A stretch of 32,000 nucleotides of DNA. Origin: Pyrolobus fumarii 1A (GTDB taxonomy: Archaea; Thermoproteota; Thermoprotei_A; Sulfolobales; Pyrodictiaceae). Below are positions 3,401 through 31,403 of the stretch, piece after piece. The stretch lies in NCBI RefSeq assembly GCF_000223395.1, contig NC_015931.1, positions 425,292 through 457,291 of the forward strand. Reading direction: 5' to 3'. How positions within the stretch are numbered: position 1 is the first letter of the stretch; every line of letters begins with the position of its first letter. The notes beneath the pieces are model-generated. The model was not told the origin of the DNA. It saw only the letters and a program-made list of their open reading frames with translations, and did no database searches. Position numbers and translations under genes: made by a program.

Positions 3401-5126
3401 CATTCTTTGTTGTTTCATGGGCTGTGTCGCGAGAACTGCTACCACGCGTGTATCATGGCATTGCTTTCAATTCATTCTTTGTTGTTTCCCGTGTGTGGCA
3501 AAAGTCGAAGGCAGAGGCGGCTACAAACCAACTTTCAATTCATTCTTTGTTGTTTCCTTGATTCTCAGCGCCACGAACGACGCTCTAGTATCGTCAATGA
3601 CCTTTCAATTCATTCTTTGTTGTTTCAGGCTGAACAGCTAGCACGGGGGAGGACACGAGCCATGAACGACTTTCAATTCATTCTTTGTTGTTTCGTGACG
3701 GGGTACCTAGCCACGGTTGTCACCTCCTAGATGTTCATACTTTCAATTCATTCTTTGTTGTTTCTCGCGGTAATAGTCCCCAGCGTCCGGGTCCACTGGT
3801 ATCTCGACTTTCAATTCATTCTTTGTTGTTTCACTGAGGCCAGGGAGGAGCGGGAGCAGAAGCCCAGCGAGGCTTGCTTTCAATTCATTCTTTGTTGTTT
3901 CCGCGCGACGTTATGGTCGTTCCCGCCGCGTCCGCCTCATCTTTCAATTCATTCTTTGTTGTTTCCTCGCTTCGAGAGGATAGTGATAAGGTGCGAGCCT
4001 ATGACGCTTTCAATTCATTCTTTGTTGTTTCGTTAAACTAGAAATGAAAGCGCAAGGTTGTGAAAACGGGTGCTTTCAATTCATTCTTTGTTGTTTCCCC
4101 AGAAATATCTCGAACCGGAAATATCGAGCCCCGATAGGGTCACATTCCTTTCAATTCATTCTTTGTTGTTTCCTCACCCACCCGACCAGCGACCCATCAC
4201 TAGCATTGTAGAACTCCCTTTCAATTCATTCTTTGTTGTTTCGTATTTGCACCACCAGCCGCAAGGCAGTATATGCCGCTTTTTCACTTTCAATTCATTC
4301 TTTGTTGTTTCCGCCTGGAGGTCTTCTGCGAGTGCAAGGGGTGTAGAGCCACTTTCAATTCATTCTTTGTTGTTTCATGATCTCAAATCGCGTCTCTTTA
4401 CCGCCGCGATCCTCTCCAGGCTTTCAATTCATTCTTTGTTGTTTCCATCAACGCTGTATCGTTCTTCCGCGATACGCCAAACCACTTGCTTTCAATTCAT
4501 TCTTTGTTGTTTCGGATGTTACAACCCCAATAGTACCCAGTGTTGCATGTTCTCTTTCAATTCATTCTTTGTTGTTTCCGCGAGTGGTGGTTCGTGAAGG
4601 CGCGTCGCATAACCGTGCTTTCAATTCATTCTTTGTTGTTTCCGCAGTTCCTGGCCACTGCCCGCCAGGTGCTAGAGAAGCTCGACTTTCAATTCATTCT
4701 TTGTTGTTTCTTTGGCTTCTCTTCATCCTCTAGACAATCACCGAGAATCAAGTCCTTTCAATTCATTCTTTGTTGTTTCATACATGTATGGGGTGGAGGT
4801 AGGTGATGCGACCAGTCATAGGCCCTTTCAATTCATTCTTTGTTGTTTCGCGCAAATGCTCGATACGTCCGCGGGAATATCCGCCTGTAGGCCTCCAGCT
4901 TTCAATTCATTCTTTGTTGTTTCAAGTCCGGAATCTCGCTGGAGATGCCGAGGCGCGGTTTCGACTTTCAATTCATTCTTTGTTGTTTCACGGCCGCTGG
5001 CATATCCTCGCTCAGTAGCGTAGCTCCGATCAACTTTCAATTCATTCTTTGTTGTTTCCTGAAGGTTATGCTGGTGGTGTATGATGGTGGAATGCCAGTT
5101 ACTTTCAATTCATTCTTTGTTGTTTC
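407..5126 (-). CRISPR. CRISPR array 1: 70 repeats / 69 spacers, repeat (crRNA sense) GAAACAACAAAGAATGAATTGAAAG
   Basis: By manual enumeration there are 68 canonical copies of CTTTCAATTCATTCTTTGTTGTTTC on the + strand (first 549-573, last 5102-5126). Two decayed copies sit at 407-431 and 478-502. The period is 62-77 nt and the spacers are unique, 37-52 nt. The reverse complement ends in ATTGAAAG, the source of the 8-nt 5' handle in archaeal Cas6-processed crRNAs. The decayed repeats are at the left end and the leader at the right end, so the array is read on the minus strand. Confidence 0.97.
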
Positions 5127-5725: not shown

Positions 5726-6700
5726 CTACCTCGTCTCTATCCTGGTTGTCCCGAATCCTGCTGCTCGGCTGGCTCCCATGCCCATTACCGCTGCGTGGCT
5801 GAGGAGGTGCTCGGTTGTCTCGGTGTCTTCTGGCGTCGCGTCCTCGACGTAGAGCTTGGTGTAGCCTACTAGTGCGGGTAGGAGCCTGCCGCTGTGTATG
5901 TAGTAGCGGAGTCTTGTTGTTCTCCAGGTGGCTGGTGAGGGTGAGAGTGTCCTCTCGGCGGCCTCCACCATCTCGAGGGCTCTCCTGTGATCGCCCTCTG
6001 CTAGCTCCAGGGCGTTGACGTAGAGGAGGTATGAGGGTGCTGGTAGTAGCCTCTTCCAGCGGGAGCCGGGGCGCCAGGGGTTAACCGGCAGCGTGGGCGC
6101 CATGAGGGTTATCTTGACGCTGGTGGCGTCGCGTAGCCTGATTATGGGCTTGCCGCCCGGATCGTAGGTGGCCACCCTCCTGGCGTCCACGAGCTCGACG
6201 CGCAGCGTGTGCATCGAGAAGTCTATGTTGACGCCCTTATCCAGGCACGAGACCACCTCGTCTATCACATCCTCGAGGCCCGGGCCGAGCCCCACGTGGA
6301 AGGCGAGGGTGGAGCCGCTCTCGACCACTGGGTACTCGGTGCTCCTGCCGTCCCAGGAGCCGGGGTAGACCGCCTCGACCCTGCCGCCCTCGACGCGGAG
6401 GAGGGGTGAGAGCGAGAGGGGCTTGGGAAGAGTCAGCCCATCGTGGTTCAGTATGAGGGCGGCTGTGCGGGAACACGTGGCCACCAAGCCCCTCACGAGC
6501 TTACCCGTGTAGTCCGTGACGAGGAGGGGGCCGTAGCCGAGCCGGAGCCACAGCCTCACCCGCAGCTCCCAACGCTGGAATATCGTCAACCAGCCGCCGG
6601 CCCCTGGCTCCAACCACACGAGAGGCGCGTATAGACATAGAGGCGGCAAAGAACCCAGGCAAACAGTCACCAGTGCACCAGTCTCTACCGCGCTCCACAC
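5726..6700 (-). CDS. cas6: Cas6-family crRNA endoribonuclease, paralogue a
   Basis: 324-aa ORF. The C-terminal glycine-rich loop MGMGASRAAGFG matches the RAMP/Cas6 pattern G-x-G-x5-G-F-G. The motif APTLPVNPWRPGSRWKRLLPAPSYLL resembles the start of the second RRM. It is paralogous over its full length to 8816-9787. It lies directly upstream of, and co-directional with, the leader and array 1. The N-terminus is probably shorter than the ORF; the conserved core begins near WLTIFQRWELRV. Confidence 0.72.
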   Translation of the reverse strand: MWSAVETGALVTVCLGSLPPLCLYAPLVWLEPGAGGWLTIFQRWELRVRLWLRLGYGPLLVTDYTGKLVRGLVATCSRTAALILNHDGLTLPKPLSLSPLLRVEGGRVEAVYPGSWDGRSTEYPVVESGSTLAFHVGLGPGLEDVIDEVVSCLDKGVNIDFSMHTLRVELVDARRVATYDPGGKPIIRLRDATSVKITLMAPTLPVNPWRPGSRWKRLLPAPSYLLYVNALELAEGDHRRALEMVEAAERTLSPSPATWRTTRLRYYIHSGRLLPALVGYTKLYVEDATPEDTETTEHLLSHAAVMGMGASRAAGFGTTRIETR

Positions 6701-8815: not shown

Positions 8816-9787
8816 CTAGCCCTCGAGCCTATCGGTGGACGGCATGGCCTCTATGCTTACCGCGCCGAAGCCAGCCGCCCTCCCGGAACCCACCCCCATG
8901 ACCACAGCGTGGCTGAGGAGGTGCTCCACGGTCTCTACCTCCCCCTTGCCCACCCCCTCTGTCTCGACGTGGAGCTTCACATAGCCTATCATCGCTGGGA
9001 GCCTGCTCCCGTCGTACAGGTACCAGTATACCCTCGCGGTGTCGAGGGCCGCGTGGCTGGGGGATAGTATCCTCTCGGCGGCGATCAGCGCCCTCTCGAC
9101 GAGAGCCGTGTCGGGGTCGAACATGTCGTGGGCGTTCACGGCCAGCAGGTATGAGGGTGTGGGCAGCAGCCTCTTCCAGCGGGAGCCGGGGCGCCAGGGG
9201 TTAACCGGCAGCGTGGGCGACCTAAACACGATCTTGACCGCCTCTACGCCGTCGAGCCTGACTATAGGGTCGCTGTGCGTGTCGTACTCCGCTATCATCC
9301 GGGCCTCTACGGGCTCCACGGTGATAGCCGCTCCGCAGAACCTCACCGAGACGCCCCGCGAGAGGCACTCGAGCAAACGTGGCATCTCGTTAATCAAGTC
9401 GCCACCAGCACCAACCTCGAAGAAGACCACCTCGCCGTCTTCGAGCACCGGGGCCCGTATCTTGTCGCGTTGCGGGCCGCCCGGGTACACCGCCTCGACC
9501 CTACCGGGGCCGGTCACGCGGAACAAGGGCGTCACGGAGAGCCTCTTGGCCACGCTCTTCTCCGAGGAGGAGAGTATGGACGCGAACCTCTCCGAGCACA
9601 CCGCTAGGAGGCTCTTCACGAGCTTCCCGGTGTAGTTGCACACGCGTAGAGAGCCGAAGCCATACACCCTAACCGTGAAGGACCATCGCTCGAACCTAGC
9701 CACTCTATAGCCCCCGTGCACAGAGGAGCAGGGATTCAAGAAGGGTTTTCGAGCAGGATTTGCGGGAGACGCGCCCTGGTGCAACAC
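8816..9787 (-). CDS. cas6: Cas6-family crRNA endoribonuclease, paralogue b
   Basis: 323-aa ORF with a C-terminal MGVGSGRAAGFG loop. It contains SPTLPVNPWRPGSRWKRLLPTPSYLL and EHLLSHAVVMG, both shared with paralogue a. The N-terminus is probably shorter; the core begins near YRVARFERWSFTVRV. Confidence 0.72.
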   Translation of the reverse strand: MLHQGASPANPARKPFLNPCSSVHGGYRVARFERWSFTVRVYGFGSLRVCNYTGKLVKSLLAVCSERFASILSSSEKSVAKRLSVTPLFRVTGPGRVEAVYPGGPQRDKIRAPVLEDGEVVFFEVGAGGDLINEMPRLLECLSRGVSVRFCGAAITVEPVEARMIAEYDTHSDPIVRLDGVEAVKIVFRSPTLPVNPWRPGSRWKRLLPTPSYLLAVNAHDMFDPDTALVERALIAAERILSPSHAALDTARVYWYLYDGSRLPAMIGYVKLHVETEGVGKGEVETVEHLLSHAVVMGVGSGRAAGFGAVSIEAMPSTDRLEG

Positions 9788-12013: not shown

Positions 12014-12273
12014 TCTACCCTCTACAACAATATTTTTAACCCCTGGTACTACCGGTGGACCGTCGCTCACGGTCCCATGGGTGGATGTGAGGTACTCCCG
12101 ACCGCTGTAATCCGGTATTTAACCCTTGCCCGGCTTATAAACTCGGTACTACCCGCGGACCATACCCCACGGCCATCTGTGCCCGGCACGACTACACTCA
12201 AATCACAGAAACAAAGACAACAGAGAAAAGAATAAATAGAAGAGAGACCCTATAACCACACGGCAAGAATGCA
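12014..12273 (+). promoter_or_regulatory. CRISPR leader of array 2 (260 bp)
   Basis: It is homologous to the reverse complement of 5127-5386. It ends in GGCAAGAATGCA directly before the first repeat, and the repeat-proximal half is purine/CA-rich and low in complexity. Confidence 0.75.
12231..12238 (+). promoter_or_regulatory. Candidate TATA box of the array-2 pre-crRNA promoter (AATAAATA)
   Basis: It lies 35 nt upstream of the first repeat (12274). Sequence and spacing are conserved with the array-1 leader. Confidence 0.4.
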
Positions 12274-13532
12274 GAAACAACCAAGAATGAATTGAAAGCT
12301 TCAGCGCGTAGTAGTGGCGCTCGAGACTCCTTGGCGAGTAGGAAACAACCAAGAATGAATTGAAAGTTCATCACGGTCGGTATGAGTGGGAGCGGCGGGT
12401 TTGGGAAACAACCAAGAATGAATTGAAAGTCCAGGTGCTCGATGGCCCATAGTGGCGCCTCTACAAGCGCGAATGGAAACAACCAAGAATGAATTGAAAG
12501 AAGGATGCGTTCGAGAACTGATATCGCGTTGTCAATTTCCCTCCGGGGAAACAACCAAGAATGAATTGAAAGGAGAGGAAGGCTGCCCCGGACCTCGTCC
12601 GCTCTATCGTCGATGGAAACAACCAAGAATGAATTGAAAGGCTATCATCGCCTCCAGTTTGGCAATGATTTGGTCAGCCTGTGAAACAACCAAGAATGAA
12701 TTGAAAGAAGCTTCTTGTACGTCTCAACGTCGGCCTCAACGCGTATTACTTTCGAAACAACCAAGAATGAATTGAAAGGCGACGTACGCGATGTGTGGCG
12801 ACTCGTTGAACTGTGTGTTCTGCCGAAACAACCAAGAATGAATTGAAAGTACAAACTCGTAGTTCTCTCCGCCACGGTTTATAACGATGAGAAACAACCA
12901 AGAATGAATTGAAAGTGCCTCGAACCTCGCGGCGGCCCTGTTATGGTTCGTGGCGGTGTGAAACAACCAAGAATGAATTGAAAGAACTATGCTCTGTAGT
13001 AGCCTGGGAAGCTCCGCGCTCATCCCGCGAAACAACCAAGAATGAATTGAAAGTAGTACACGCAATACGGCATTGCACACCCACCACGCGTACACTCTAG
13101 AAACAACCAAGAATGAATTGAAAGTAGTGTGGCACGACAGTGGCTATGACTTAGTGCCGGGCTATAGCCAGAAACAACCAAGAATGAATTGAAAGGTGAC
13201 ACTATACAACATCACGGACGTCGTGAAGAGGAGCGTGAAACAACCAAGAATGAATTGAAAGTTAACCCGGCCGCGCGCCGCGACGATCTCGAGATCGCGC
13301 CGGCGGAAACAACCAAGAATGAATTGAAAGGTGATAAAGTACGGCGCGCAATACGGCACCGGGTTCTGGATTGAAACAACCAAGAATGAATTGAAAGTGA
13401 TCTCCTGTGGGTTCGGTTTCTCCACCCTGATCTCGACATCAGAAACAACCAAGAATGAATTGAAAGGTAGCTGAGACCATAGCGTAGCCGGTAGAGTTGT
13501 GCCACGGGAAACAACCAAGAATGAATTGAAGA
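12274..13532 (+). CRISPR. CRISPR array 2: 19 repeats / 18 spacers, repeat GAAACAACCAAGAATGAATTGAAAG
   Basis: There are 18 exact copies (first 12274-12298) and a terminal degenerate copy at 13508-13532 (GAAACAACCAAGAATGAATTGAAGA, one A missing). Spacers are 38-47 nt and unique. The leader is on the left, so the array is read on the + strand. Confidence 0.97.
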
Positions 13533-13603
13533 TGTTTAGGGTGGCTGGCTTGGTTGGTCTGGTTGCGTCCGCGTGTTTTGCCGGGTGGGTTTCTGCGTTG
13601 CGG

Positions 13604-17236: not shown

Positions 17237-18961
17237 TCACTGTGTGGTGTAGGGTAGCCTGGTTGTTAGTTTCTCGATTTTCACTGTTCTCTCGTCACCC
17301 TCAATTATTAGGGAGGCGTTGGAATCTTTCAATATCGTTGCTAGTATCGCGATGAGTTGAGCCGCGCCCGCTAATATGCGCAGGGCTTCTGTGATATCGC
17401 TTGTGTCGGCTTGGATCACTGTCTTTCCGGCGTTTGGTGTTAATAGTATGGCGCAGCCAGTGTCAGCCTCGCGCCAGGCGTTGAACGCTCCTTTATCGTT
17501 AGTCGCTAGTATGGTCTTTCCCCGGGCGCTTACCAGCATGTTTGCCTCGCATGTGCCGTGGCCCTCGACCCCCTGCTCTAGGAGCGCTTCGGCGGCCATG
17601 GAGGCTATGCCGGAGAGCACAGCCTTGATATCGCTTGTAGAGCGTTTAGCCGCCTCCATGTAGTTGGACAGCGCCTCTCGGTATGCGCACGCCGGGAACC
17701 GTAGCACGTTGGGCTCTCCCCTCCTCCCGCTTAGGGCCATTCTCCACGCTAGCTCGTAGATGTCGTTGTGTGCGCCGAGATAGGCTAGGTTGGTATCCCC
17801 CCACACGCGGTACCCTTTCCCGAGACTAGACTCGAGTATATCAACGAGGCTGGCGTGCTTCTTCACGAACTCCGGACAATTGGCATGCTCGCTCACCACT
17901 AGCCTCCATAGCCCCGCGGCGACCGGCAGCTCCCGGAGCAACCCGAGCCACTTCCGGAAGCCATCGTCTTCGCAGGTGTTTCTCCCTCCATGCCCAGCGA
18001 TAGGGTACGACGCGCTGTAGAGTGTGCAAGCCGCGTCCTCGCTCTTAAAGAGCGTGTGCAGCTCCACACTGACAGTCTCCGGCTCGAAACCAAGCCCCTT
18101 CACTGTCAACACGTGGATGCGTTGCACACCACTGCTCCTCTCACCCACCTCGATGTAGACTCTAGCCTCGTCTCTTGCTACCGAGTTCAGCAGCTGGTGC
18201 ACAAGCCCCACAGCTGTGTTGAGCGGTTGGAAGCCCCGGCCTCTCCTATACGAGAGTGACTCGAGGCGCTTGGGTACACGTATGCGCGTGGGGCTGGGGC
18301 TGGCTGCTTGACGCGATCCACTCACGATATCGAAGATGACTGGTTTTGCGAGGAGCCTTGGCACTCTCGGGTAGAAGCCCGTCTCGTCACTCACTGCCCA
18401 CCAACCGACCAGCCTATCAACGCCGTGCGACGAGGTGTACGTCAGTAACAGTTGGTGGCTACTAGCCGCCCTCACAGATATGGAGGCCGCTGTAGAGGCT
18501 ATCGAGGACATCAGCTTAGTCCCGCCGGTGACATCGACTATAACGTCGTGCCCATTTTGCAGCTCTCGTTTCAATGTGCCCTGGAGCTCCTGGACAACCC
18601 CTCCGGGGTCACGCACAGCATGCGTCATCAGCTCGTCGATCACCACATTAGGCCCGCCCTCTATGAGCGCATCTAGCCTCCTCCTAGCATCCTCGGCGTA
18701 CCTCCGCGACACGTTAGTGGCCAGCAGCACCGCCCTATCATACCCTAGGACCTCGTAGGCAGCCGCTAATACTGATGTTATGGCGGCGGCGTTCGTGCCC
18801 ACGGTGGCATACAGGACTCGGCCCACGCGTATAGCCCCAGCCTTAACGCTACACACCCGCATATAACCATACTTAGGCTCTCCGCACAAGCGCCAAACCA
18901 GCATATACGCGTTGAGAGCTACCCGCCGCCTGGCCTCAGCACACGGGCCTGTTGTGCACAC
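17237..18961 (-). CDS. CARF-domain / PIN-domain fusion protein (candidate cyclic-oligoadenylate-responsive nuclease)
   Basis: 574-aa ORF; the likely start is ATG 18862 (MRVCSV...). The N-terminal Rossmann-like region has VLYATVGTNAAAITSVL and IVDVTGGTKLMSSIAS (nt 18506-18535), the D-x-T-G-G-T/R-K motif I associate with CARF domains. The C-terminal region (about nt 17402-17815) has the PIN hallmarks RVWGDTNLAYLG ... EANMLVSARGKTILATNDKGAF. The middle ~190 aa and the C-terminal tail are unassigned. Confidence 0.65.
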   Translation of the reverse strand: MCTTGPCAEARRRVALNAYMLVWRLCGEPKYGYMRVCSVKAGAIRVGRVLYATVGTNAAAITSVLAAAYEVLGYDRAVLLATNVSRRYAEDARRRLDALIEGGPNVVIDELMTHAVRDPGGVVQELQGTLKRELQNGHDVIVDVTGGTKLMSSIASTAASISVRAASSHQLLLTYTSSHGVDRLVGWWAVSDETGFYPRVPRLLAKPVIFDIVSGSRQAASPSPTRIRVPKRLESLSYRRGRGFQPLNTAVGLVHQLLNSVARDEARVYIEVGERSSGVQRIHVLTVKGLGFEPETVSVELHTLFKSEDAACTLYSASYPIAGHGGRNTCEDDGFRKWLGLLRELPVAAGLWRLVVSEHANCPEFVKKHASLVDILESSLGKGYRVWGDTNLAYLGAHNDIYELAWRMALSGRRGEPNVLRFPACAYREALSNYMEAAKRSTSDIKAVLSGIASMAAEALLEQGVEGHGTCEANMLVSARGKTILATNDKGAFNAWREADTGCAILLTPNAGKTVIQADTSDITEALRILAGAAQLIAILATILKDSNASLIIEGDERTVKIEKLTTRLPYTTQ

Positions 18962-20489: not shown

Positions 20490-21509
20490 TTGACACCGTG
20501 GAGGGATTGCGGGTGGAGGACCGGGCTGGGTACCTGCTTCTACAACCGGAGGGTTGAGACCGAGCGCCTTTCTAGTCTCCTGGATGGTTTCAGCCTCGTT
20601 GTTCTCGTGGGGCCGCGGAATGCTGGTAAGAGCGAGCTTGCAAGATATACGCTCCTCCGCGTGAAGCGCGTCAAGCCGATGATAGTTGATGCTAGGAGGG
20701 TGGTCGCGAGGGCCGGGCTGGGCGGGCGACTAGAGCCTCTCGGCGAGCGTGTGGTCGGCACAGTGGCGAGGTTTGTTGAGGAGAAGGCTGGGCTAGGTGC
20801 GCTACTCGACCTGGTCTCCAGTGTCTATCGGGAACTTGCTCTCGACGAGTATGTCGTGATAGACGAGGTTCACCTGGTTGCGCGCGACACTCTCCGCGAG
20901 CTTGAGGCTCTCGCTAAGCTGCTCCGCTTCTACCCGGAGTATAAGAAGTGGAAGATGGTAGTCACTTGTAGCGAGGGCTTCCTGCTGGCGCAGGGTCTGG
21001 CCGATAGGCTGGACGGGTACGGCGCCCGTGTTCTCCTCCTCGAGCCTCTAGGCGAGGAGGATGCGCGTGCACTCTACGAGGAGTACGTGGAGAGGAGAGG
21101 GTGCAGGCTAGGCTGGAGCCTCTACTGGGGGCTTATCGGCGGACTACCCGGCTACCTCCCAGACTACTGCGCGATGAACCCGGACGAGCTCAGACGATGG
21201 GTGCACGAGAGGCTCTCTAGCCTCGTATCCGCGCTCCTGGAGGCCGCCAGGGAGGCCAGGGTAGACCCCGCAGAGGTACTCCGCGCCGCACACGAGCTGC
21301 TAGTGGAAGGGCAACAGGTGCTAACGCCGCTGCACCTGACCCTAAGCAGGGTACTCGTACACACAAACATAGCGTACCAAGCCGGGCTCCAGCTAAAACC
21401 ACAGCTCAGGGTATACACCGTCGCACTAGCACTATGGGCGTCACGCGGCTACAACGAACCACCCAACCCCCAAGACGTGATCAAAGCAGCCAAAGAAGAC
21501 ACGGTGTGA
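20490..21509 (+). CDS. Archaeal ATPase family protein (PF01637-type)
   Basis: 339-aa ORF. The N-terminal WRTGLGTCFYNRRVETERL and Walker A VLVGPRNAGKSELARY, plus a Walker B-like motif YVVIDEVH, make it closely paralogous to 30228-31403. Confidence 0.8.
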   Translation: MTPWRDCGWRTGLGTCFYNRRVETERLSSLLDGFSLVVLVGPRNAGKSELARYTLLRVKRVKPMIVDARRVVARAGLGGRLEPLGERVVGTVARFVEEKAGLGALLDLVSSVYRELALDEYVVIDEVHLVARDTLRELEALAKLLRFYPEYKKWKMVVTCSEGFLLAQGLADRLDGYGARVLLLEPLGEEDARALYEEYVERRGCRLGWSLYWGLIGGLPGYLPDYCAMNPDELRRWVHERLSSLVSALLEAAREARVDPAEVLRAAHELLVEGQQVLTPLHLTLSRVLVHTNIAYQAGLQLKPQLRVYTVALALWASRGYNEPPNPQDVIKAAKEDTV

Positions 21510-21700: not shown

Positions 21701-22318
21701 CTACGCTCTCTGTTTACCTCCGAAGCACCTGGTGTATACCGGTTTGCGCCCCGCTTCTATCTCTTCGAGCAGCTGGTGTGCCTCCATCACTACCGTATCT
21801 GCTAGTCGGAGTATCCTCTCCCACCTTATCCTTTCAAGCGCGTCTAGAAACGCTTGTGTGTCCAATATGTTCTCCTCGCGGGCGAGAAGAAGGAGGCCCA
21901 CAGTTCCGGTAACAGCTGTGTTCCTCTTAGGGAGCAGCTTCGCCGCCTTTGTCCTCGCTCTCTTATCGTCAAGTACTAGGCAGATGCGTGTGCGACCCCT
22001 CCTGGAATAGTATAGTGCAATTGCGATTGCGTGCTTCTCTCCCTCGCCTAAACCTACAGCTGACTGCTCCACCACCTCTAGGTACTCCAATTGAGCATCA
22101 ACAATGTATGCCGCATACTCGTTAGGGTTGCATTCGAAATTCGGATGTTGTATCTCTTTGTAAACGCTGCGCGGTATGACAATAGTATAACCCTTCTCTG
22201 TTAGCTTATGCACCAGGTTAACCATGCCTAGTTTGCAGAGGGTAACTAGCGTGCTCGTATCCAGTATTATGATGCGGTTAGCCGCTCTACTCCTCGAATA
22301 GCTTATCGCTCGTGACAA
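21701..22318 (-). CDS. DUF3368/COG2405-type PIN-like protein (toxin partner of UPF0175)
   Basis: IIILDTSTLVTLCKLGMVNLVHKL...IVIPRSVYKEI and LGEGEKHAIAIAL...LVLDDKRARTKAAKL...VTGTVGLLLLA match my recollection of the DUF3368 pattern. It overlaps the upstream gene by 32 nt. Confidence 0.7.
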   Translation of the reverse strand: MSRAISYSRSRAANRIIILDTSTLVTLCKLGMVNLVHKLTEKGYTIVIPRSVYKEIQHPNFECNPNEYAAYIVDAQLEYLEVVEQSAVGLGEGEKHAIAIALYYSRRGRTRICLVLDDKRARTKAAKLLPKRNTAVTGTVGLLLLAREENILDTQAFLDALERIRWERILRLADTVVMEAHQLLEEIEAGRKPVYTRCFGGKQRA

Positions 22319-22928
22319 GGCCTCCTAGCTTCCTCCGCGCGATATCAACAAACTCTAAAACGTTCATGCCAGCCACCCTTGCGGCCAGAGTAACTGAGAT
22401 TAAGCCGCGCTCGTATAGCTTGAGGGCTGTCTCTAGACGCAGACGTTTATCCAGGAGTATATGCTTCTTCTCCGACTCCTCATAGCCACCATACACGCTA
22501 TATACGAAGGCTAGTAGCTCCCTATCGTCCAGCTCATTGAATATCTCGAGAGTCTCCCTTAGCAAGGATGCGAGGTTGCCCCGCTTTTCTACAGCTTGCC
22601 ACGCCCTCTCCCCCTCGTTAATGTCACGCAGCCTCACACCCTCCCTGCTGCTCTCCGTTACACCCTTCTTCTCCAACATCTCCAGCTCGTGCTCCACATC
22701 CTCACTCCACGCGCCAAAACGGTATGGTATGAACTCTACATCTTGTACAGCTCGCGGCGCGTGACTCGAGACTATGTAGAGGAGTTTCATGAGACGCAAC
22801 CTTGAGAGTTTGCCACCAGCGGTGTACAACGCCGCAAGTATGAGGTCACGTAGCGTGACCCTCTCGCCAGATCCACGTGCAACACGGCGAAGAGCGTCTC
22901 TGCTCAGCCTTGCCACGCTACTCGCCAA
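22287..22928 (-). CDS. UPF0175/COG2886-type antitoxin with a ~150-aa N-terminal extension
   Basis: 213-aa ORF with a TTG start. The C-terminal LRLETALKLYERGLISVTLAARVAGMNVLEFVDIARRKLG is a UPF0175 signature. The N-terminal part (RLRLMKLLYIVSS...FIPYRFGAWSEDVEHELEMLEKKG) resembles SocA/Panacea (DUF4065)-type domains. TTTTTAAGTAAAT (transcript sense, + strand about 22949-22961) lies 20-30 nt upstream of the start. Confidence 0.65.
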   Translation of the reverse strand: MASSVARLSRDALRRVARGSGERVTLRDLILAALYTAGGKLSRLRLMKLLYIVSSHAPRAVQDVEFIPYRFGAWSEDVEHELEMLEKKGVTESSREGVRLRDINEGERAWQAVEKRGNLASLLRETLEIFNELDDRELLAFVYSVYGGYEESEKKHILLDKRLRLETALKLYERGLISVTLAARVAGMNVLEFVDIARRKLGGLVTSDKLFEE

Positions 22929-25711: not shown

Positions 25712-26197
25712 CTAGAGTGTGATTGGTTTTGGTGGTGTTCTTGTCGTCTTGTCGCATAGGGTCTCCGCCCTGTTTATCCTCTGCTGCTCTTCGTGCGGGA
25801 TTGGCGTGTATATCGTCGTGTATCCTCTCCTAACCGAGTACATGGCTGCTATTATGGAGGCTAGTTTGCGGCCCCCGGTGACGTCTATTATGGCGTGTTT
25901 GGCGCCTCTCGTTGCCTCCTCTAGCTTCTCGAGGAGCTCGTTTATGCCCTCCTCGTCCGTGACGTCGTCAACCCTCAGCGCGTGCACGTGTATCGTGGTG
26001 CTTGGCGCTAGTGGTGGTTTGTCCGTGCCGGGGCATGGGCAGGTCCTGGCTATCTCTATCGCCTCGTGTACTGGTGCCCGCCTAGTCGCCACGATGTGAA
26101 CCTCTGTGGGTGTAGCTGCGTTGGCACGTAGCGCGCAGAGCACCGTGTGGAGGACTCCCGGAGACATCCCGAGTAGCACGACGAGCCTTGTGCCCAC
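25712..26197 (-). CDS. Stand-alone CARF-domain protein (Crn1 / Csx14 / NE0113-like)
   Basis: 161-aa ORF with a GTG start. The N-terminal LVVLLGMSPGVLHTVLCAL and the later IIDVTGGRKLASIIAA are the two signature motifs (L-G-T/M-S-P-G-V and D-x-T/S-G-G-R-K) that I recall from small CARF proteins such as Sulfolobus ring nuclease Crn1. No effector domain is fused. Confidence 0.7.
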   Translation of the reverse strand: MGTRLVVLLGMSPGVLHTVLCALRANAATPTEVHIVATRRAPVHEAIEIARTCPCPGTDKPPLAPSTTIHVHALRVDDVTDEEGINELLEKLEEATRGAKHAIIDVTGGRKLASIIAAMYSVRRGYTTIYTPIPHEEQQRINRAETLCDKTTRTPPKPITL

Positions 26198-26278
26198 GGC
26201 GCCGCGCCCCCGTGGTAGCCTTTAGCGCGTCTCGCGCTTGTTGTGCCCTCTGCCGTGGCGTAGTCGCGCTCTAGATTA

Positions 26279-27961
26279 GTGTGGGTGTCTTTCCCCTCCT
26301 GCTCGAGGCGGGGCTCTGGCTGCATGGAGGGTCATGAGCCTCTCCTGCCTCTCTATGCTGGTGTTGGCGTCGCGGCTGTGAGGGTGTTCGGGTGGAGTGT
26401 TGGGGCGGATGGCGTCCCGGTCTCTTGGGACCCGTTGGAGTGGATGGCTTGGCTCCGTTGGCCCCGCGAGGCTGTGGAGGCGTTCTCGACGCTCTATGGC
26501 CGCGTGTCAAGCGGGTGCGAGCGTGTCTCCCTGGTCTACCTGGACGCGGGGTCTCGCTCGTCGCCAGAGGCCCGCCGGAGCGTCTTCGCCGTGAAGCTCG
26601 CGGTGGTGCACCGGGTGTCGGTGGGTGGCGTTGTTGAGGAGCGTGTTGTGCACCCGTTGTTGAGGGGTGAGGGTGGGGCGGGGCTCCCTCTGCTCGTGGG
26701 CCGCGGGGGAGACCGGGCGAGGCAGGCTATCACCTACATTGTGGAGCTCGGGGCTGTCTACTCGCTGCTCCGCGGTGGTTGCGTGCTAGTCCTTAAGCAC
26801 GGGCCTCTCGCGCAGCAGCTGCAACAGTACCTGCGGCCCAGCTACGACCTTGACGCTGACGTGCTGCACTCTGCGCTCGTATACTCGGGCGTCGAGCGCG
26901 ACGAGGCTGACGCGATTGTGGATGCGGCTAGGGTTGAGGGTGGGATGGTCAACGCCGGTGTGGCTATACTCGAGCTGCTCTCTCGCATAGCGCGTCTAGC
27001 CGCGAGCGACGGGTCTGTGGCGGTGGCGGGCGTCACTGAGGACGTGACGGGTAGCCGTGTGCTAGCCTCGAGGCTCCTAGCCGAGGCTGCGAGGGCCGCG
27101 CTCGACGCGTATGAGGGCGGTGTGTTGAAGATCGACGGGCTGCGCTCCACAATCGCTCCGAGGATAGCGAGTCTCGTGAGGCTCGGCCGCGCGGCGCTAG
27201 ACCGTCTGTGCGGGGACGGGGGGTGCCTATCCAGGTGCCTGGGCCTAGGCGGCATGGATGACCGGGAGCTGCAGGCGTTTACGGTTGGTCTCGTGGAGGC
27301 GCTCCACCGTAGGCTCTTCTACGAGAGGCAGGTGCCGCTAAGGTCGGCTTCCATTGCTGCGCTCGAGGCGGCGGTATACACGGAGGTTGGCAGGCTCCTC
27401 GAGACTAGCGACGCGTCCATAATCCTCGCTGGGCATTGCCTCGCCGGCCCCATAGCCGTGACGAGAGCCTGGCGTAGGGACGCTCTGCTCGAACTCCTAA
27501 AGTGGACCGTGAGCGACGTTAAGCGCGACGTGAAGAAGGAGCTTTTGACTAGCTTCGCAGACGTGTATGCCTATGTCGTGCCGGGGGATCCGCCTACATG
27601 CGCGCGGATAGAGGAGCTTCTCGAGTCGAGAGGGTTGGCGGGGAGGGTAGACCCGTGGCTCCTCGTTAGGCTCCAGAGGGTCTACCCGCCGGTCCGCGTC
27701 GACACCGTCGCGCCCAGTGGCGAGGAGGAGGGCGTGGCGCTCGAGAAGCTGAGGGGGCTAGCTGCGCTCGTCTACCTGGCCTCCAGCGTATCCCTCCACG
27801 GGTACCCGGCTGGGCTCCTGGTGGCTGATGCCAGGTCTCGTGTGACGCTAGGCGAGGCGTCTATACTCGAGGAGCTTGCGAGGAGGCTCGCAGAAAGGTT
27901 ACAGCCCTACGCGGCCATCCTAAGACACTGGAGGTTGCGACGAGCAACGGTGGTAGACTAG
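26279..27961 (+). CDS. NurA-like nuclease-family protein (tentative)
   Basis: 560-aa ORF (GTG 26279; ATG 26324 is the likelier start). Its stop lies 2 nt before the HerA-like start. Motif-level resemblance to NurA: LVYLDAGSRS (compare x-D-G-S), VAGVTEDVTGSRVL, and the C-terminal SLHGYPAGLLVADARSRV (compare G-Y-P-x-x-L-x-x-A-H/D). It is larger than the NurA proteins I know. Confidence 0.45.
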   Translation: MWVSFPSCSRRGSGCMEGHEPLLPLYAGVGVAAVRVFGWSVGADGVPVSWDPLEWMAWLRWPREAVEAFSTLYGRVSSGCERVSLVYLDAGSRSSPEARRSVFAVKLAVVHRVSVGGVVEERVVHPLLRGEGGAGLPLLVGRGGDRARQAITYIVELGAVYSLLRGGCVLVLKHGPLAQQLQQYLRPSYDLDADVLHSALVYSGVERDEADAIVDAARVEGGMVNAGVAILELLSRIARLAASDGSVAVAGVTEDVTGSRVLASRLLAEAARAALDAYEGGVLKIDGLRSTIAPRIASLVRLGRAALDRLCGDGGCLSRCLGLGGMDDRELQAFTVGLVEALHRRLFYERQVPLRSASIAALEAAVYTEVGRLLETSDASIILAGHCLAGPIAVTRAWRRDALLELLKWTVSDVKRDVKKELLTSFADVYAYVVPGDPPTCARIEELLESRGLAGRVDPWLLVRLQRVYPPVRVDTVAPSGEEEGVALEKLRGLAALVYLASSVSLHGYPAGLLVADARSRVTLGEASILEELARRLAERLQPYAAILRHWRLRRATVVD

Positions 27962-27963
27962 CC

Positions 27964-29997
27964 TTGAGCAATGTACAGCCCATGGGCTACATAGTGAGGC
28001 TCTCGAGCTACGTGGAGGCGGAGGCCGTGGCGCTGACGCCGCTCGAGGAGAGCCTCCAGAGGGGCCAGATAGTAGAGGTGGTTGACCACAGCCAGGGCGG
28101 CGCGAGGTACCTCGCGGTCATAACGGACGTCTCGGAGACCGAGCCGCACCCCCTCATAGACCCGGAGGCGTTCCAGGCCCTCCTCCGCGAGGCTAGAGCC
28201 GAGCACGTTGATACGACCGAGCTCCTCCGCGCGATGCTCGACCCCACGAGCCCCTTCCGCTTCGCCACAACAGTCCACCTCAGGCTACGCCTCCTAGGCA
28301 GGTTGGTGGGCGACGCACTCGGGGATATCGGCAGGCCGCCTAGACCCAGGTCCACCATCCACCTGCCCGAGGCGGGCCTACTAGAGCAGCTCCTCTGCCC
28401 TAACCGCCCCAGTGTGGTCCCCATAGGGAGGCTCTCGCTGAGGAGCGACGTGAGAGTCTGCATAGACCTCGATAGGCTCAACACGCACATGGCGGTCCTC
28501 GGGCAGACGGGGTCGGGGAAGACGGAGACCGTCAAGAGGCTCGTCTACGAGACTATACGCTCGTGGCTGGCGCGGGGCACCCCACGCCGAGGAGTCATCG
28601 TGATGGACGTCGCAGGGGAGTATACGGGCTACCCCTACCGCCCGCCGAGCGCCACACCCCTCCTCGAGGCCCTGGCGCGCCACGGTATACAGCCGCGCCT
28701 CACGATAATCGTGCCCTTCGACCCGCTCTACGCGCACCCTGCTCTCGTCGAGGCCGGAGTAGCCGAGCTGGCAGGGAGGCTCTCGAGGCTATACCGTGGA
28801 GCCCGCGCGGCGGGCGTAGTCCTCCACGCGAGGAGCCCGACAGCCACGCTGGTACACCCGCCGCCGCGCACCGAGCTAACCCCCGCCGAGCTCCAAGCCC
28901 TCCTCGCCACCGCCGAGATGCTCGTAGTGGCGGCGCCGCTGCCCGACACGCTACCCCTGGGCCTCCTCCTCGAGCTCGGCGCGTTCAACGAGGACGCGGA
29001 GTACACGGCTGCCCTACACGAGGCCCTAGAGGAGCTAGAGGAGTATAACATCGTGTCGTCGGTTACGCTGCTAAGCGAGCTGGCTAGGATAGCTGTCGAC
29101 GCCCGCCCCCGCAGCAGAGACTTCACATACCCCACGAGCATAGACACAACCTCCATATGCAGCGCCGCCGACGAGGCCCAACTGCTGAACGCGATAAGGT
29201 CGCAGCTGTCCATGGCCATAGGGGCTGACCCTCAGAGCCTAGCCGGTACTAGGCTACAGGAGCCCAGCGTGTGGGTATCGAGGCTGACTGGCGACTACCT
29301 CGACCCAAGCCTAGAGGCCCTGAGGGCGACATGCGCCTCGAGCCCGGGGCGCATACGCGAGAGGCTCTTGGGCGTGGCGCGAGCCGCCTACCGCATAGCG
29401 AGGAGCGACGTGAGATCCAGGAAGGCGCTCTACAGGAGGCTCTCTAGGATAGCCAGGGTAGCGTCACCCGCCCTCAACCCGCTCGCGGCTAGACTCATAG
29501 CCTGGAGGGTCTACAACGGCTTCACGATACTCCACCTGGCGCCGCCCTCAGTAGGCGGCGTCAACCACCCGCTCGTAACCTGGCTCCTCAACGAGGTGTT
29601 CGAGGAGGCTGTTAGGGGCTACACGCTCGACCAGAGGATGCTCGTTGTCGTAGAGGAGGCTCACAACCTGGCACCGTCACGCGAGGACACCTTCTCCAAG
29701 AGGATGTTGGTCAGGTACGCGAGGGAGGGGAGAAAGTGGGGACTAGGCCTCGTGATAGTCACGCAGAGGCCGGTCGGCGTAGACCCCACCATACTCAGCC
29801 AAACAGCCACACTAGTAGCACTCCGCATGACAAACCCGGAGGACATCCAGGCGGTGAAAAGCAGCGTCGAGAGCGCCACAGCAGAACTCGTCGAGAGACT
29901 ACCAGACCTAGACCGCGGCGAGGCACTAGCCTCGGGCAACGCGCTACCAGAACGCCGCATACCACTCCTAGCCAGGATAGACATGGTCGGCCACTAG
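27964..29997 (+). CDS. HerA/DUF87-family (FtsK-HerA superfamily) ATPase
   Basis: 677-aa ORF (TTG 27964 or ATG 27982). It has an N-terminal HAS-barrel-like segment GYIVRLSS...GQIVEVVD...YLAVITDV. Walker A context: CIDLDRLNTHMAVLGQTGSGKTETV (nt 28501-). Walker B: MLVVVEEAHNLAP (nt 29638-). The stretch YAREGRKWGLGLVIVTQRPVGVDPTILSQTATLVALRMTNPEDI is typical of HerA. Confidence 0.85.
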   Translation: MSNVQPMGYIVRLSSYVEAEAVALTPLEESLQRGQIVEVVDHSQGGARYLAVITDVSETEPHPLIDPEAFQALLREARAEHVDTTELLRAMLDPTSPFRFATTVHLRLRLLGRLVGDALGDIGRPPRPRSTIHLPEAGLLEQLLCPNRPSVVPIGRLSLRSDVRVCIDLDRLNTHMAVLGQTGSGKTETVKRLVYETIRSWLARGTPRRGVIVMDVAGEYTGYPYRPPSATPLLEALARHGIQPRLTIIVPFDPLYAHPALVEAGVAELAGRLSRLYRGARAAGVVLHARSPTATLVHPPPRTELTPAELQALLATAEMLVVAAPLPDTLPLGLLLELGAFNEDAEYTAALHEALEELEEYNIVSSVTLLSELARIAVDARPRSRDFTYPTSIDTTSICSAADEAQLLNAIRSQLSMAIGADPQSLAGTRLQEPSVWVSRLTGDYLDPSLEALRATCASSPGRIRERLLGVARAAYRIARSDVRSRKALYRRLSRIARVASPALNPLAARLIAWRVYNGFTILHLAPPSVGGVNHPLVTWLLNEVFEEAVRGYTLDQRMLVVVEEAHNLAPSREDTFSKRMLVRYAREGRKWGLGLVIVTQRPVGVDPTILSQTATLVALRMTNPEDIQAVKSSVESATAELVERLPDLDRGEALASGNALPERRIPLLARIDMVGH

Positions 29998-30227: not shown

Positions 30228-31403
30228 TCAGGGTTTGTGCCCATGCAGCTTGGCCACGGCTTCCTGGTATACCCTGTGCGGGTCTAGATCGAGGAGAGTC
30301 TCTACACCCTCCCGGTATCCCAGCTCTATCACCGTACGGTAGACTGGGTATTGGGGCTTGTAGCGTATGCCGTCGCGCCCCCGCGGGTACACCGGATAAA
30401 CTATGTTGTAGGTTGTGAGTATCTGGCCTAGTGCGTGTAAGTGTGGCTCGCGGAGAGGCGCGATGTCGTTGTTTATGAGTTCGTAGGCTAGTCTTATCAC
30501 TTCTCGCGGCTCAAGCTCACGGCGGAAGATCTCCGCGCTTAGCACGTTCCTAGCCCGGCTGAGCCCAGTCTCAACCTCCGCTATCCACATTGGCACACGT
30601 TCCTCCACCACTGTGTTTCTGTCGAGCATGCACAACTCGGGCAGGTAGCCAGGCGTCCCGCCCACAAGACCCAGCACCTCGTCCACATCTACACCGCAGC
30701 TTTTCAAGCTCACATACTCCTTGTAGAGAGCCCTGAAATGATCGACATCCAGATGCTCGACTAGCATCCATGCCGTGGAGTACCCGTGGAGCTTTGACAA
30801 GACGAGGTCTGTAGCCGTGAAACCCTCGCTTACAGTTAACACTATAGTGATGTTCGAGTAGTGCGGATCCTTTGCTAGTAGGCCTGCGAGAGCCTCCAGG
30901 TCGTCAAGAGCATCGAGGTACTTGCTCGCCGGGTCGCTTTTATGCATGTAGCGGGGCAGCAGGTGGAACTCGTCTATAAAGAGGATTATCCGCGTGGAGG
31001 CATACTCGCGGATAACGTCTATGAGTACATCGATGGCATGGTATGTCAGCTGGAGTAGCCCAGTAGACCTATCGTCGAGGTCTTTGAGAACTTCCAGAAG
31101 CCGCTCGGCTAGATTCTTTTTATCGACTAGTAGACCTCTCGTCTCAAGCGCCCTGACAAGATGCTGACCCCGGAGCCGACGCGCATCCACGTACACGGCT
31201 GCTATGCGGCCACGCTCTTGTAGCCCCCGGAGCCAGTACCGTACGAGCTCGCTCTTCCCGACGCCACGCGGCCCATAGACTATAACCGTCCTATGAGAGA
31301 AGACGAGTTTATCCAGCCTCTCGAGCTCCACGAGCCTATCGTAGAAGGCTGTGCCCAGCCCCGTACGGTAACCCCGATCAACATACACCGCTACCATCTC
31401 CAC
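30228..31403 (-). CDS. Archaeal ATPase family protein (PF01637-type)
   Basis: 391-aa ORF with YRTGLGTAFYDRLVELERL, Walker A VIVYGPRGVGKSELVRY and Walker B ILFIDEFHLL. It is closely paralogous to 20490-21509. Confidence 0.85.
   Translation of the reverse strand: MEMVAVYVDRGYRTGLGTAFYDRLVELERLDKLVFSHRTVIVYGPRGVGKSELVRYWLRGLQERGRIAAVYVDARRLRGQHLVRALETRGLLVDKKNLAERLLEVLKDLDDRSTGLLQLTYHAIDVLIDVIREYASTRIILFIDEFHLLPRYMHKSDPASKYLDALDDLEALAGLLAKDPHYSNITIVLTVSEGFTATDLVLSKLHGYSTAWMLVEHLDVDHFRALYKEYVSLKSCGVDVDEVLGLVGGTPGYLPELCMLDRNTVVEERVPMWIAEVETGLSRARNVLSAEIFRRELEPREVIRLAYELINNDIAPLREPHLHALGQILTTYNIVYPVYPRGRDGIRYKPQYPVYRTVIELGYREGVETLLDLDPHRVYQEAVAKLHGHKP

Follow-up and report, generated by a model that had tools for sequence, protein, structure and literature searches.

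A conserved CARF, NurA-like and HerA gene trio in Pyrolobus fumarii with a possible role in cyclic tetra-adenylate signaling

A 32,000-nucleotide (nt) stretch of the Pyrolobus fumarii 1A genome (contig NC_015931.1, positions 425,292 to 457,291; hereafter “the window”) carries a gene for a small, CARF-only protein that is divergent from a closely coupled pair of genes encoding a NurA-like protein and a HerA ATPase. This trio is a conserved, co-inherited unit in hyperthermophilic Thermoprotei (hot-vent archaea), as judged from recurrent adjacency in two gene orders, from control loci and from the co-divergence of its genes. We propose, at a probability of about 0.45, that it is an accessory defense module coupling cyclic tetra-adenylate (cA4) signaling to ATP-driven DNA destruction, with the CARF protein as sensor and timer. 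CRISPR-associated NurA/HerA pairs have been catalogued since 2012 without an assigned role; the present analysis defines a compact, co-inherited three-gene unit, with a putative NurA-fold nuclease that was missed by every sequence model tested here, and turns a vague association into a testable proposal, namely that cA4, via the CARF protein, would switch on processive DNA degradation. A preliminary description of the region had already suggested a DNA-degrading machine controlled by cyclic oligoadenylate (cOA) or buffered by a ring nuclease, and this suggestion appears to agree with the evidence presented below.

The CARF-only gene (25712-26197, minus strand) encodes 161 amino acids (aa) that are 100% identical to Pyrfu_0485 of P. 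fumarii 1A, a member of the Pyrodictiaceae. On the plus strand, the NurA-like open reading frame (ORF; 26279-27961) encodes 560 aa if read from a GTG at 26279 and probably 545 aa from an ATG at 26324, and the HerA gene (27964-29997, plus strand; 677 aa, TTG start) begins exactly 2 nt past its stop; all three were taken from the ORF list. The divergent intergenic region (26198-26323), presumed to hold shared promoters, spans 81 bp to the GTG and 126 bp to the ATG, and a scan for promoters and terminators of the bacterial type was not informative there, the DNA being archaeal. Of the two starts the ATG is the likelier, because homology to relatives begins only downstream of it, because an identical protein from another assembly (P0006) begins there and because residues 1-17 of the structural model are disordered (predicted local distance difference test [pLDDT] below 50). 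The layout given in the preliminary description (a divergent CARF-only gene with two named motifs, starts roughly 80-125 bp apart and a 2-nt gap within the pair) was confirmed in its coordinates and motifs. All three are genuine genes and not shadow ORFs of GC-rich sequence, since each has homologues and either a high-confidence structural model or strong profile matches.

Conservation and linkage of the trio

Genomic contexts were collected by four routes (from NurA-like members, from CARF homologues, by a reference-genome scan and by a metagenome scan seeded with the CARF alignment), and the three window proteins were mapped on the related loci by tblastn; the reference-genome scan, from a sub-alignment, gave at least three loci. 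HerA directly follows the NurA-like gene wherever the locus extends far enough, and the pair is kept in all lineages examined (18/18). A gene of the same CARF subfamily (at least 31% identical to Pyrfu_0485, with a CPCP/Cys4 signature) adjoins the pair in 11 lineages and, whether sampling started from the NurA-like or from the CARF protein, every CARF subfamily homologue with enough flanking sequence did so (11/11 lineages). Two gene orders occur: the CARF gene is divergent and upstream of the pair in seven lineages (the window, L004/L023, L005, L011, L014/15, L016 and L018), and in four (L012, L013, L020 and L021) it comes right after HerA in the same orientation. In L013 the CARF start overlaps the HerA stop, which suggests co-production. 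Eight loci with more distant CARF proteins served as a control (24-29% identity to Pyrfu_0485, ∼181 aa, canonical-Crn1-like, with the pattern GTSPGG...CC...DITGGRK), and neither a NurA-like nor a HerA gene was found in their flanks. Across eight loci, pairwise divergences of the CARF proteins followed those of the NurA-like proteins (r = 0.87; Mantel p ∼2e-4), as did those of HerA (r = 0.94).

Absence of the trio from related genomes, which the preliminary description took as a mark of chance adjacency, was not observed, the trio being present in 11 lineages; on the grounds of this recurrent, co-diverging linkage, chance adjacency and housekeeping repair were both rejected. Specifically, it could be supposed that the pair is a housekeeping paralogue of the double-strand-break resection machinery and that its CARF neighbor is coincidental: canonical NurA-HerA resects DNA ends (PMC12977600) and several related loci have housekeeping neighbors. 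Adjacency to CARF genes in 11 lineages with co-divergence makes this very improbable, as do the extreme rarity of the NurA-like family, its divergence beyond the reach of any NurA sequence model and the absence of mre11 and rad50 from beside the trio, the last as previously described. A viral or anti-CRISPR origin was set aside as well, as no viral contig carried the NurA-like or the CARF family.

The flanks of related loci bear on how far the trio depends on CRISPR systems. No cas genes or arrays were seen in the flanks of L004, L005, L011-L013 and L018 (flank of up to 10 kb, in L018), where the trio's neighbors are housekeeping genes (isoleucyl-tRNA synthetase, ABC transporters, thioredoxin and ribosomal protein S8e). 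As its linkage persists without a cas gene or array in the flanks, the CARF gene follows the NurA-like/HerA pair and not cas loci. The location of the module outside cas loci in most related loci also weakens an argument of the preliminary description, which had drawn on CRISPR neighbors. CRISPR-type neighbors were found elsewhere, namely Cas6 with two array-like repeats in L006 and, in L010, a Csx1-like CARF gene.

A self-contained, CRISPR-independent trio for defense or DNA surveillance, in which the CARF protein would sense a signal other than that of Cas10 or be purely structural, would fit the 6- to 10-kb flanks of most related loci, which were without cas genes or arrays. It would also fit the rare and patchy NurA-like family (42 representatives among 1.84 billion), the recurrence of a divergent TGT-family gene beside the module (see below) and the established antiphage design of a HerA paired with a nuclease (PMC11291478), TdpAB (8wfd) being among the fold matches of the NurA-like protein. 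However, the CARF protein keeps the cA4-specific residues of Crn1, the window module shares a CRISPR-rich island with Cas6 and a second CARF gene, related loci lie beside Cas6 (L006) or a Csx1-like gene (L010), and published surveys found HerA/NurA co-evolving with type III systems (PMC6546367). On balance, a role independent of CRISPR is quite unlikely, and a module tied to cA4 signaling remains the preferred reading.

In one 117-kb hydrothermal-vent contig (L019, 6423-8734), HerA lies in two to three pieces beside an intact NurA-like gene, with no CARF gene, and the module is probably decaying there.

Predicted properties of the three proteins

Pyrfu_0485 carries the motifs LGMSPGV (residues 9-15) and DVTGGRK (residues 105-111) and was assigned to the PADLOC family CARF_m13 (E-value 1.2e-44). 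Its best NCBIfam model was that of the ring nuclease Crn1 (NF040581; 1.1e-12, 48 bits against a cutoff of 125), to which the CARF homologues at related loci scored 53-82 bits, and it is therefore a Crn1 relative and not an orthologue by the NCBIfam equivalog criterion. The APE2256 model in the Pfam scan reached only E = 0.04. The sole significant sequence matches in the PDB were the Crn1 proteins Sso2081 and Sis0455 (1.5e-10). An AlphaFold (AF2) model of Pyrfu_0485, predicted from a five-sequence alignment, had a pLDDT of 91.3; its top 11 Foldseek matches were Crn1 (template-modeling [TM] score 0.70-0.77), followed by the CARF domains of Cam1, Cdn1, Can2, Csm6, Cad1 and Card1, and all 41 matches with E up to 0.001 were CARF proteins, which agrees with the Rossmann-like fold of the CARF superfamily. 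The protein has no effector domain and no DNA-binding domain. Profile and structure searches, named in the preliminary description as the check on its CARF assignment, thus bore that assignment out.

Crn1 has been placed in families CARF7 and CARF_m13 (Hoikkala et al.; PMC12409355) and binds cA4 with nanomolar affinity while cleaving it slowly (PMC10018336; PMC12409355). Functionally important sites of Sso2081 are Ser11 in motif I, Gly104-Arg105-Lys106 in motif II and Asp75, of which S11, R105, K106 and D75 are required for cA4 binding or cleavage; cA4 binding leads to a large conformational rearrangement (PMC10018336). G10-M11-S12, G109-R110-K111 and D78 of Pyrfu_0485 align with motif I, motif II and the adenine-binding Asp of Sso2081, respectively. 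G10, D78, G109, R110 and K111 are invariant in 10 CARF homologues, and S12 is Ser in nine and Thr in one; the position of Sso2081 Tyr133 is occupied by Gln138 in Pyrfu_0485 and by Tyr in most homologues. Four cysteines (C21, C53 and C55 of the CPCP motif, and C148) are likewise invariant in the subfamily; canonical Crn1 is without them, and they may form a metal site or disulfides. From these residues, Pyrfu_0485 is predicted to bind cA4 and is probably also a cA4-cleaving ring nuclease.

The same likeness to Crn1 opens the possibility that the CARF protein does no more than lower cell-wide cA4 as a ring nuclease of the Crn1 type, next to a pair that acts without sensing cA4 and is kept together with it for co-expression; the pair's job might then be, for example, to degrade DNA ends left by CRISPR interference or to supply fragments for spacer acquisition. 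Sequence, fold and catalytic motifs of Pyrfu_0485 are all those of Crn1, a family placed in CARF7/CARF_m13 (PMC12409355), no nucleotide-sensor domain is recognizable in the NurA-like protein or HerA, and a role in adaptation and repair was proposed by Bernick et al. (PMC3396285). One would, however, look for a cell-wide ring nuclease close to type III loci and to effectors activated by cA4, whereas this CARF subfamily, unlike canonical Crn1, follows the pair into loci without a cas gene, in two gene orders and in 11/11 lineages, and the CARF/HerA overlap in L013 suggests co-production. We consider a role restricted to cell-wide cA4 removal somewhat unlikely for these reasons, and favor a CARF protein that would serve its own NurA-like/HerA pair.

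The description of the second protein of that pair as a HerA/DUF87 ATPase was borne out by Pfam matches above cutoff (DUF87: 1.4e-16, 61.7 bits, cutoff 23.2; HerA_C: 4.9e-9, 35.8 bits, cutoff 22). PADLOC HerA models matched at 6.9e-42, and the “HerA, Type III coevolved” model at 1.1e-20. NCBIfam models of repair and antiphage HerA proteins matched at 1e-28 to 7e-34, and their best score (117 bits) is so far under the equivalog cutoffs of 800-970 that the window HerA is placed, by profile score, in a separate HerA subfamily. Nine module HerAs are identical in Walker A (GQTGSGKTE, K186), in Walker B (VVEEAHN, E564/E565) and in a downstream Arg motif (AREGRKWG), and have a large, poorly conserved insertion between Walker A and Walker B. 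The protein is a bona fide ATPase of the HerA family (FtsK/HerA) and is probably active. At 677 aa it exceeds the NCBIfam HerA profiles (487-561 positions), as its partner exceeds the NurA proteins of the PDB (SsoNurA, 319 aa; PfNurA, ∼430 aa), so that the earlier remark on the unusual size of both proteins holds.

The NurA-like protein could be related to NurA by structure. It had no match in Pfam, PADLOC or NCBIfam; the Pfam NurA model matched none of 34 family members at E up to 1, and a PDB sequence search with the family profile returned nothing. A k-mer-seeded homologue search, with the protein alone and as a profile, recovered only a truncated identical copy (P0006), and an exhaustive HMMER search defined a family of 42 representatives among 1.84 billion (37 at E ≤1e-10). 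Members are mostly 480-570 aa; cluster records consulted for 30 of them gave no name or “hypothetical protein” in every case, and those of traceable origin stem from Thermoprotei metagenomes or metagenome-assembled genomes. P0006 itself (Logan assembly, 15,361-bp contig) is 307 aa long, is 100% identical to residues 16-316 and then stops; either the gene is frameshifted or truncated in this second assembly of the same organism, or the break is an artifact of assembly.

An AF2 model built from the family alignment (pLDDT 87.7; predicted TM score [pTM] 0.89) gave a different picture in a Foldseek search of the PDB: the top nine matches were all NurA chains, with RNase H and Argonaute next. The best was 2ygk_A from S. 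solfataricus (E = 1.7e-5, probability 1.0, TMt 0.54), and the others came from P. furiosus (3tal/3tai/3taz), the T. kodakarensis HerA-NurA complex (9x1n) and TdpAB (8wfd). Global superposition on NurA was poor (root mean square deviation above 13 Å) because of a large insertion in the NurA-like protein. NurA nucleases are dimers with Mn2+-dependent exo- and endonuclease activity. In their fold, a middle (M) domain breaks up an RNase H/PIWI-like alpha/beta core, helices precede the core at the N terminus and extended helices follow it at the C terminus (Chae 2012; PMC3300031). The NurA-like model shows N-terminal helices, an RNase H/PIWI-like core, an all-helical insertion at residues ∼261-420 and C-terminal helices; the order of its elements (N-terminal helices, three long strands, a helix, a short strand, the insertion, strands and extended C-terminal helices) agrees with the published NurA plan (PMC3300031).

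In PfNurA the catalytic set comprises D51 (strand S1), E105 (helix H3), D126 (end of S4) and H411 (C-terminal helix), the fourth position being His, Asp or Glu on the C-terminal helix across NurA proteins (PMC3300031). The topological equivalents in the NurA-like protein are D89, E156, H174 and D517, an assignment made from secondary-structure order and not from residue-level superposition. D89, E156, E254, D378 and D517 are invariant in 48 NurA-like sequences, and position 174 (codon at 26798-26800 of the window) is His in 42/48 and Asp in 6/48. On the model and this pattern of residues, the protein has a NurA fold, and its conserved metal-site constellation is probably catalytic. As neither sequence models nor PDB sequences match, its NurA membership is at the level of fold and superfamily only, outside the NurA sequence family as modeled. 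The preliminary description is upheld here as to the NurA relation, by fold, and not as to the NurA-like sequence motifs that it had reported, which no sequence model supports.

Known systems and a proposed mechanism

The preliminary description went too far in presenting the trio as a candidate new module. Bernick et al. described a CRISPR-associated nurA-csm6(CARF)-herA cluster in Pyrobaculum/Thermoproteales in 2012, and in Pyrobaculum nurA and herA have the csm6-annotated CARF gene (APE2256 family) between them, which shares a transcript with nurA (PMC3396285). Such clusters were catalogued again in 2014 (PMC3973734) and 2018 (PMC6546367). In the former, Vestergaard et al. list 14 members each of Cas HerA and Cas NurA, which invariably occur together, as well as a “Csx1 minimal” family with Pyrfu_0517 of P. 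fumarii 1A as exemplar (PMC3973734); in the latter, Shah et al. report HerA/NurA as “Type III coevolved” clusters 57/58 (PMC6546367). The putative auxiliary genes of CRISPR systems listed by FLSHclust likewise include NurA and HerA (PMC10910872). No experimental study of the CRISPR-linked NurA/HerA(-CARF) cluster was found in the literature searched, within which the earlier statement that no characterized example is known still holds.

Like the cluster of Bernick et al., the window trio lies in a CRISPR-rich region and combines a NurA-type nuclease and HerA, apart from the mre11-rad50 operon, with a small CARF-only protein. In contrast, its CARF gene (and those of its relatives) is either upstream and divergent or downstream of herA, and not between nurA and herA; its CARF protein is CARF_m13/Crn1-like, the APE2256 model (the family of the Pyrobaculum csm6) reaching only E = 0.04; its NurA-like protein has no Pfam NurA match; and most related loci do not adjoin arrays or cas genes. 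PADLOC holds the “Type III coevolved” HerA and had no match for the NurA-like protein, although a Cas NurA model in that collection was not established. The missing PADLOC match and the weaker match of the window HerA to the “Type III coevolved” model (1.1e-20) than to other HerA models (6.9e-42) are an indirect sign that the trio may be distant from the Cas NurA/HerA genes PAE0122/PAE0128, VMUT_1471 and Tagg_0814/0815. The concept of a CRISPR-linked nurA-CARF-herA cluster is thus already known, and the window module is a very divergent form of it, set apart by gene order, CARF family, an undetectable NurA-like sequence and its frequent location away from cas genes.

Among characterized machines, the canonical HerA-NurA resection complex (2ygk, 3tal, 9x1n) provides the best structural matches for the NurA-like model. 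Both have adjacent and closely coupled genes, intact HerA Walker motifs and a NurA-type subunit whose RNase H/PIWI-like core, divided by a middle domain, carries an Asp on its first strand and a Glu on the helix after it, as assigned from topology. The window module differs in having no mre11/rad50, no detectable NurA sequence similarity, a linked CARF gene, large insertions in both proteins and, in most members, His in place of the second catalytic Asp. The CARF protein shares with Crn1 (Sso2081, Sso1393, Sis0455) its fold, the motif I Ser, the motif II Gly-Arg-Lys, the adenine-binding Asp and a stand-alone form of about 160-180 aa; unlike Crn1, its subfamily has the Cys4 signature, is always linked to NurA-like/HerA genes and falls under the NF040581 cutoff. 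The bacterial antiphage systems DUF4297-HerA (PMC11291478) and TdpAB (8wfd) are likewise defense units in which a hexameric ATPase of the HerA family is paired with a nuclease; the fold matches of the window NurA-like protein include the NurA-like subunit of TdpAB, and antiphage HerA models of PADLOC and NCBIfam match the window HerA at 1e-28 to 7e-42. These systems, however, have no CARF partner or cOA link, and the window trio is archaeal with another nuclease family.

HerA hexamers translocate DNA into a NurA dimer for ATP-dependent cleavage (PMC12977600). By analogy with solved HerA-NurA complexes, the window HerA hexamer would feed DNA into a dimer of the NurA-like protein, where it would be cut processively. 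Control of this machine would begin with a type III CRISPR complex elsewhere in the genome making cA4; a CARF dimer would bind the cA4 and switch conformation as Sso2081 does, and the switch would license the NurA-like/HerA machine for DNA degradation. Slow cleavage of cA4 by the same CARF protein could then turn the system off, so that the CARF protein would be a separately encoded sensor and timer, not one fused to its effector. The full version of this proposal, a detachable Crn1-like cA4 sensor and timer that licenses a processive, ATP-driven NurA-like/HerA DNA shredder with an unusual Asp-Glu-His-Asp active site, is more doubtful than the general one and is offered tentatively.

Several points weigh against this proposal. 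Crn1-family proteins are known as free-standing ring nucleases. Plain vertical co-inheritance would also give the mirror-tree correlation of the three genes. No CARF gene of this subfamily was seen in 7/18 NurA-like lineages: in L001, L007/8 and L009 the sequence ends at or within HerA, too early to judge CARF presence; L010 has another kind of CARF gene, Csx1-like, after HerA; L006 has none of the subfamily; L019 has the fragmented HerA; and in L002 no CARF gene lies within ∼2 kb on either side of the pair. Cas10 was not found in the 32,000-nt window, and most related loci lie among housekeeping genes. The catalytic assignment rests on the order of secondary-structure elements, and the His at the second catalytic Asp position in 42/48 sequences means that the nuclease chemistry may be different or weakened compared with canonical NurA.

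The cOA-activated effectors in the 2025 CRISPR-Cas classification comprise HEPN, PIN and RelE RNases, PD-(D/E)xK and HD DNases, proteases, transcription regulators and membrane proteins, and its list holds no ATP-driven translocase-nuclease machine (PMC12669027). If true, a cA4-licensed NurA-like/HerA machine would be a new class of type III effector, multi-subunit and ATP-dependent, with a sensor encoded apart from the effector, and would explain the role of the CRISPR-linked NurA/HerA pairs described in 2012. If not, the trio would show that a ring nuclease can be devoted to one given DNA-processing machine as its partner.

Surroundings in the window and at related loci

The window is a defense island, with two CRISPR arrays, two Cas6 paralogues, a 574-aa CARF protein and PIN/DUF3368 and DarG-like candidates. 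The arrays (∼478-5060, plus strand, and 12270-13546, in opposite orientation) hold at least 66 and 19 copies, respectively, of a 25-nt repeat, and their repeats are one base apart (CTTTCAATTCATTCTTTGTTGTTTC vs CTTTCAATTCATTCTTGGTTGTTTC); the copy at 478 of the first array is degenerate. Rfam returned no match at gathering thresholds. Both lie 12-25 kb from the trio, so they are its neighbors, as previously described, only in a loose sense. Within the first array, neighboring spacers at 3941-4098 are ∼73% alike (Tandem Repeats Finder period 66, 2.4 copies), suggesting that spacers were acquired more than once from related targets or that a spacer-repeat unit was duplicated.

The two Cas6 paralogues (5726-6700 and 8816-9787, both minus strand; PADLOC Cas6 at 1e-25 and 3e-31) lie ∼3.1 kb apart and look like a tandem duplication, as they share DNA segments (71-89% identical) at a spacing of 3114-3120 nt; a 404-aa ORF without a family match lies between them. 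The 574-aa protein (17237-18961, minus strand), previously given as a CARF-PIN gene, has an N-terminal CARF domain (residues ∼49-173; PADLOC 7e-9), and its PIN part was not confirmed, as the ∼400 C-terminal residues matched nothing in Pfam or PADLOC. A PIN/DUF3368 gene (21701-22318; PADLOC candidate PDC-S70, 4e-20) overlaps a PDC-M19A/DarG-like gene (22287-22928; 1e-13), both on the minus strand, and the two look like a toxin-antitoxin or candidate defense pair.

The trio is flanked by a 159-aa ORF of unknown kind and by an archaeal ATPase_2 gene. The latter is one of two STAND-like archaeal ATPase genes (PF01637, ATPase_2) in the window (30228-31403, minus strand, and 20490-21509, plus strand); it is convergent with HerA, just 3′ of it, and among the related loci examined no ATPase_2 gene was seen next to the module.

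At related loci, though not in the window, a short, divergent TGT-superfamily gene (360-364 aa) lies directly upstream of the module in three separate lineages. Copies were located in L002 (1450-2532, minus strand), L003 (949-2031, minus strand), L018 (8295-9389, plus strand) and L012 (7501-8121, plus strand, truncated), those of L018 and L002 being 47% identical. The gene is neither arcTGT (57-63 bits vs a cutoff of 350) nor DpdA (19.5 vs 200), and its recurrence there could be a matter of conserved synteny or of a function related to base exchange or modification. In L001, a gene for a 677-aa SLFN-g3/Nhi/AbiO-like helicase (2466-4499, plus strand) lies upstream of the NurA-like/HerA pair, which suggests a defense-island context for that locus.

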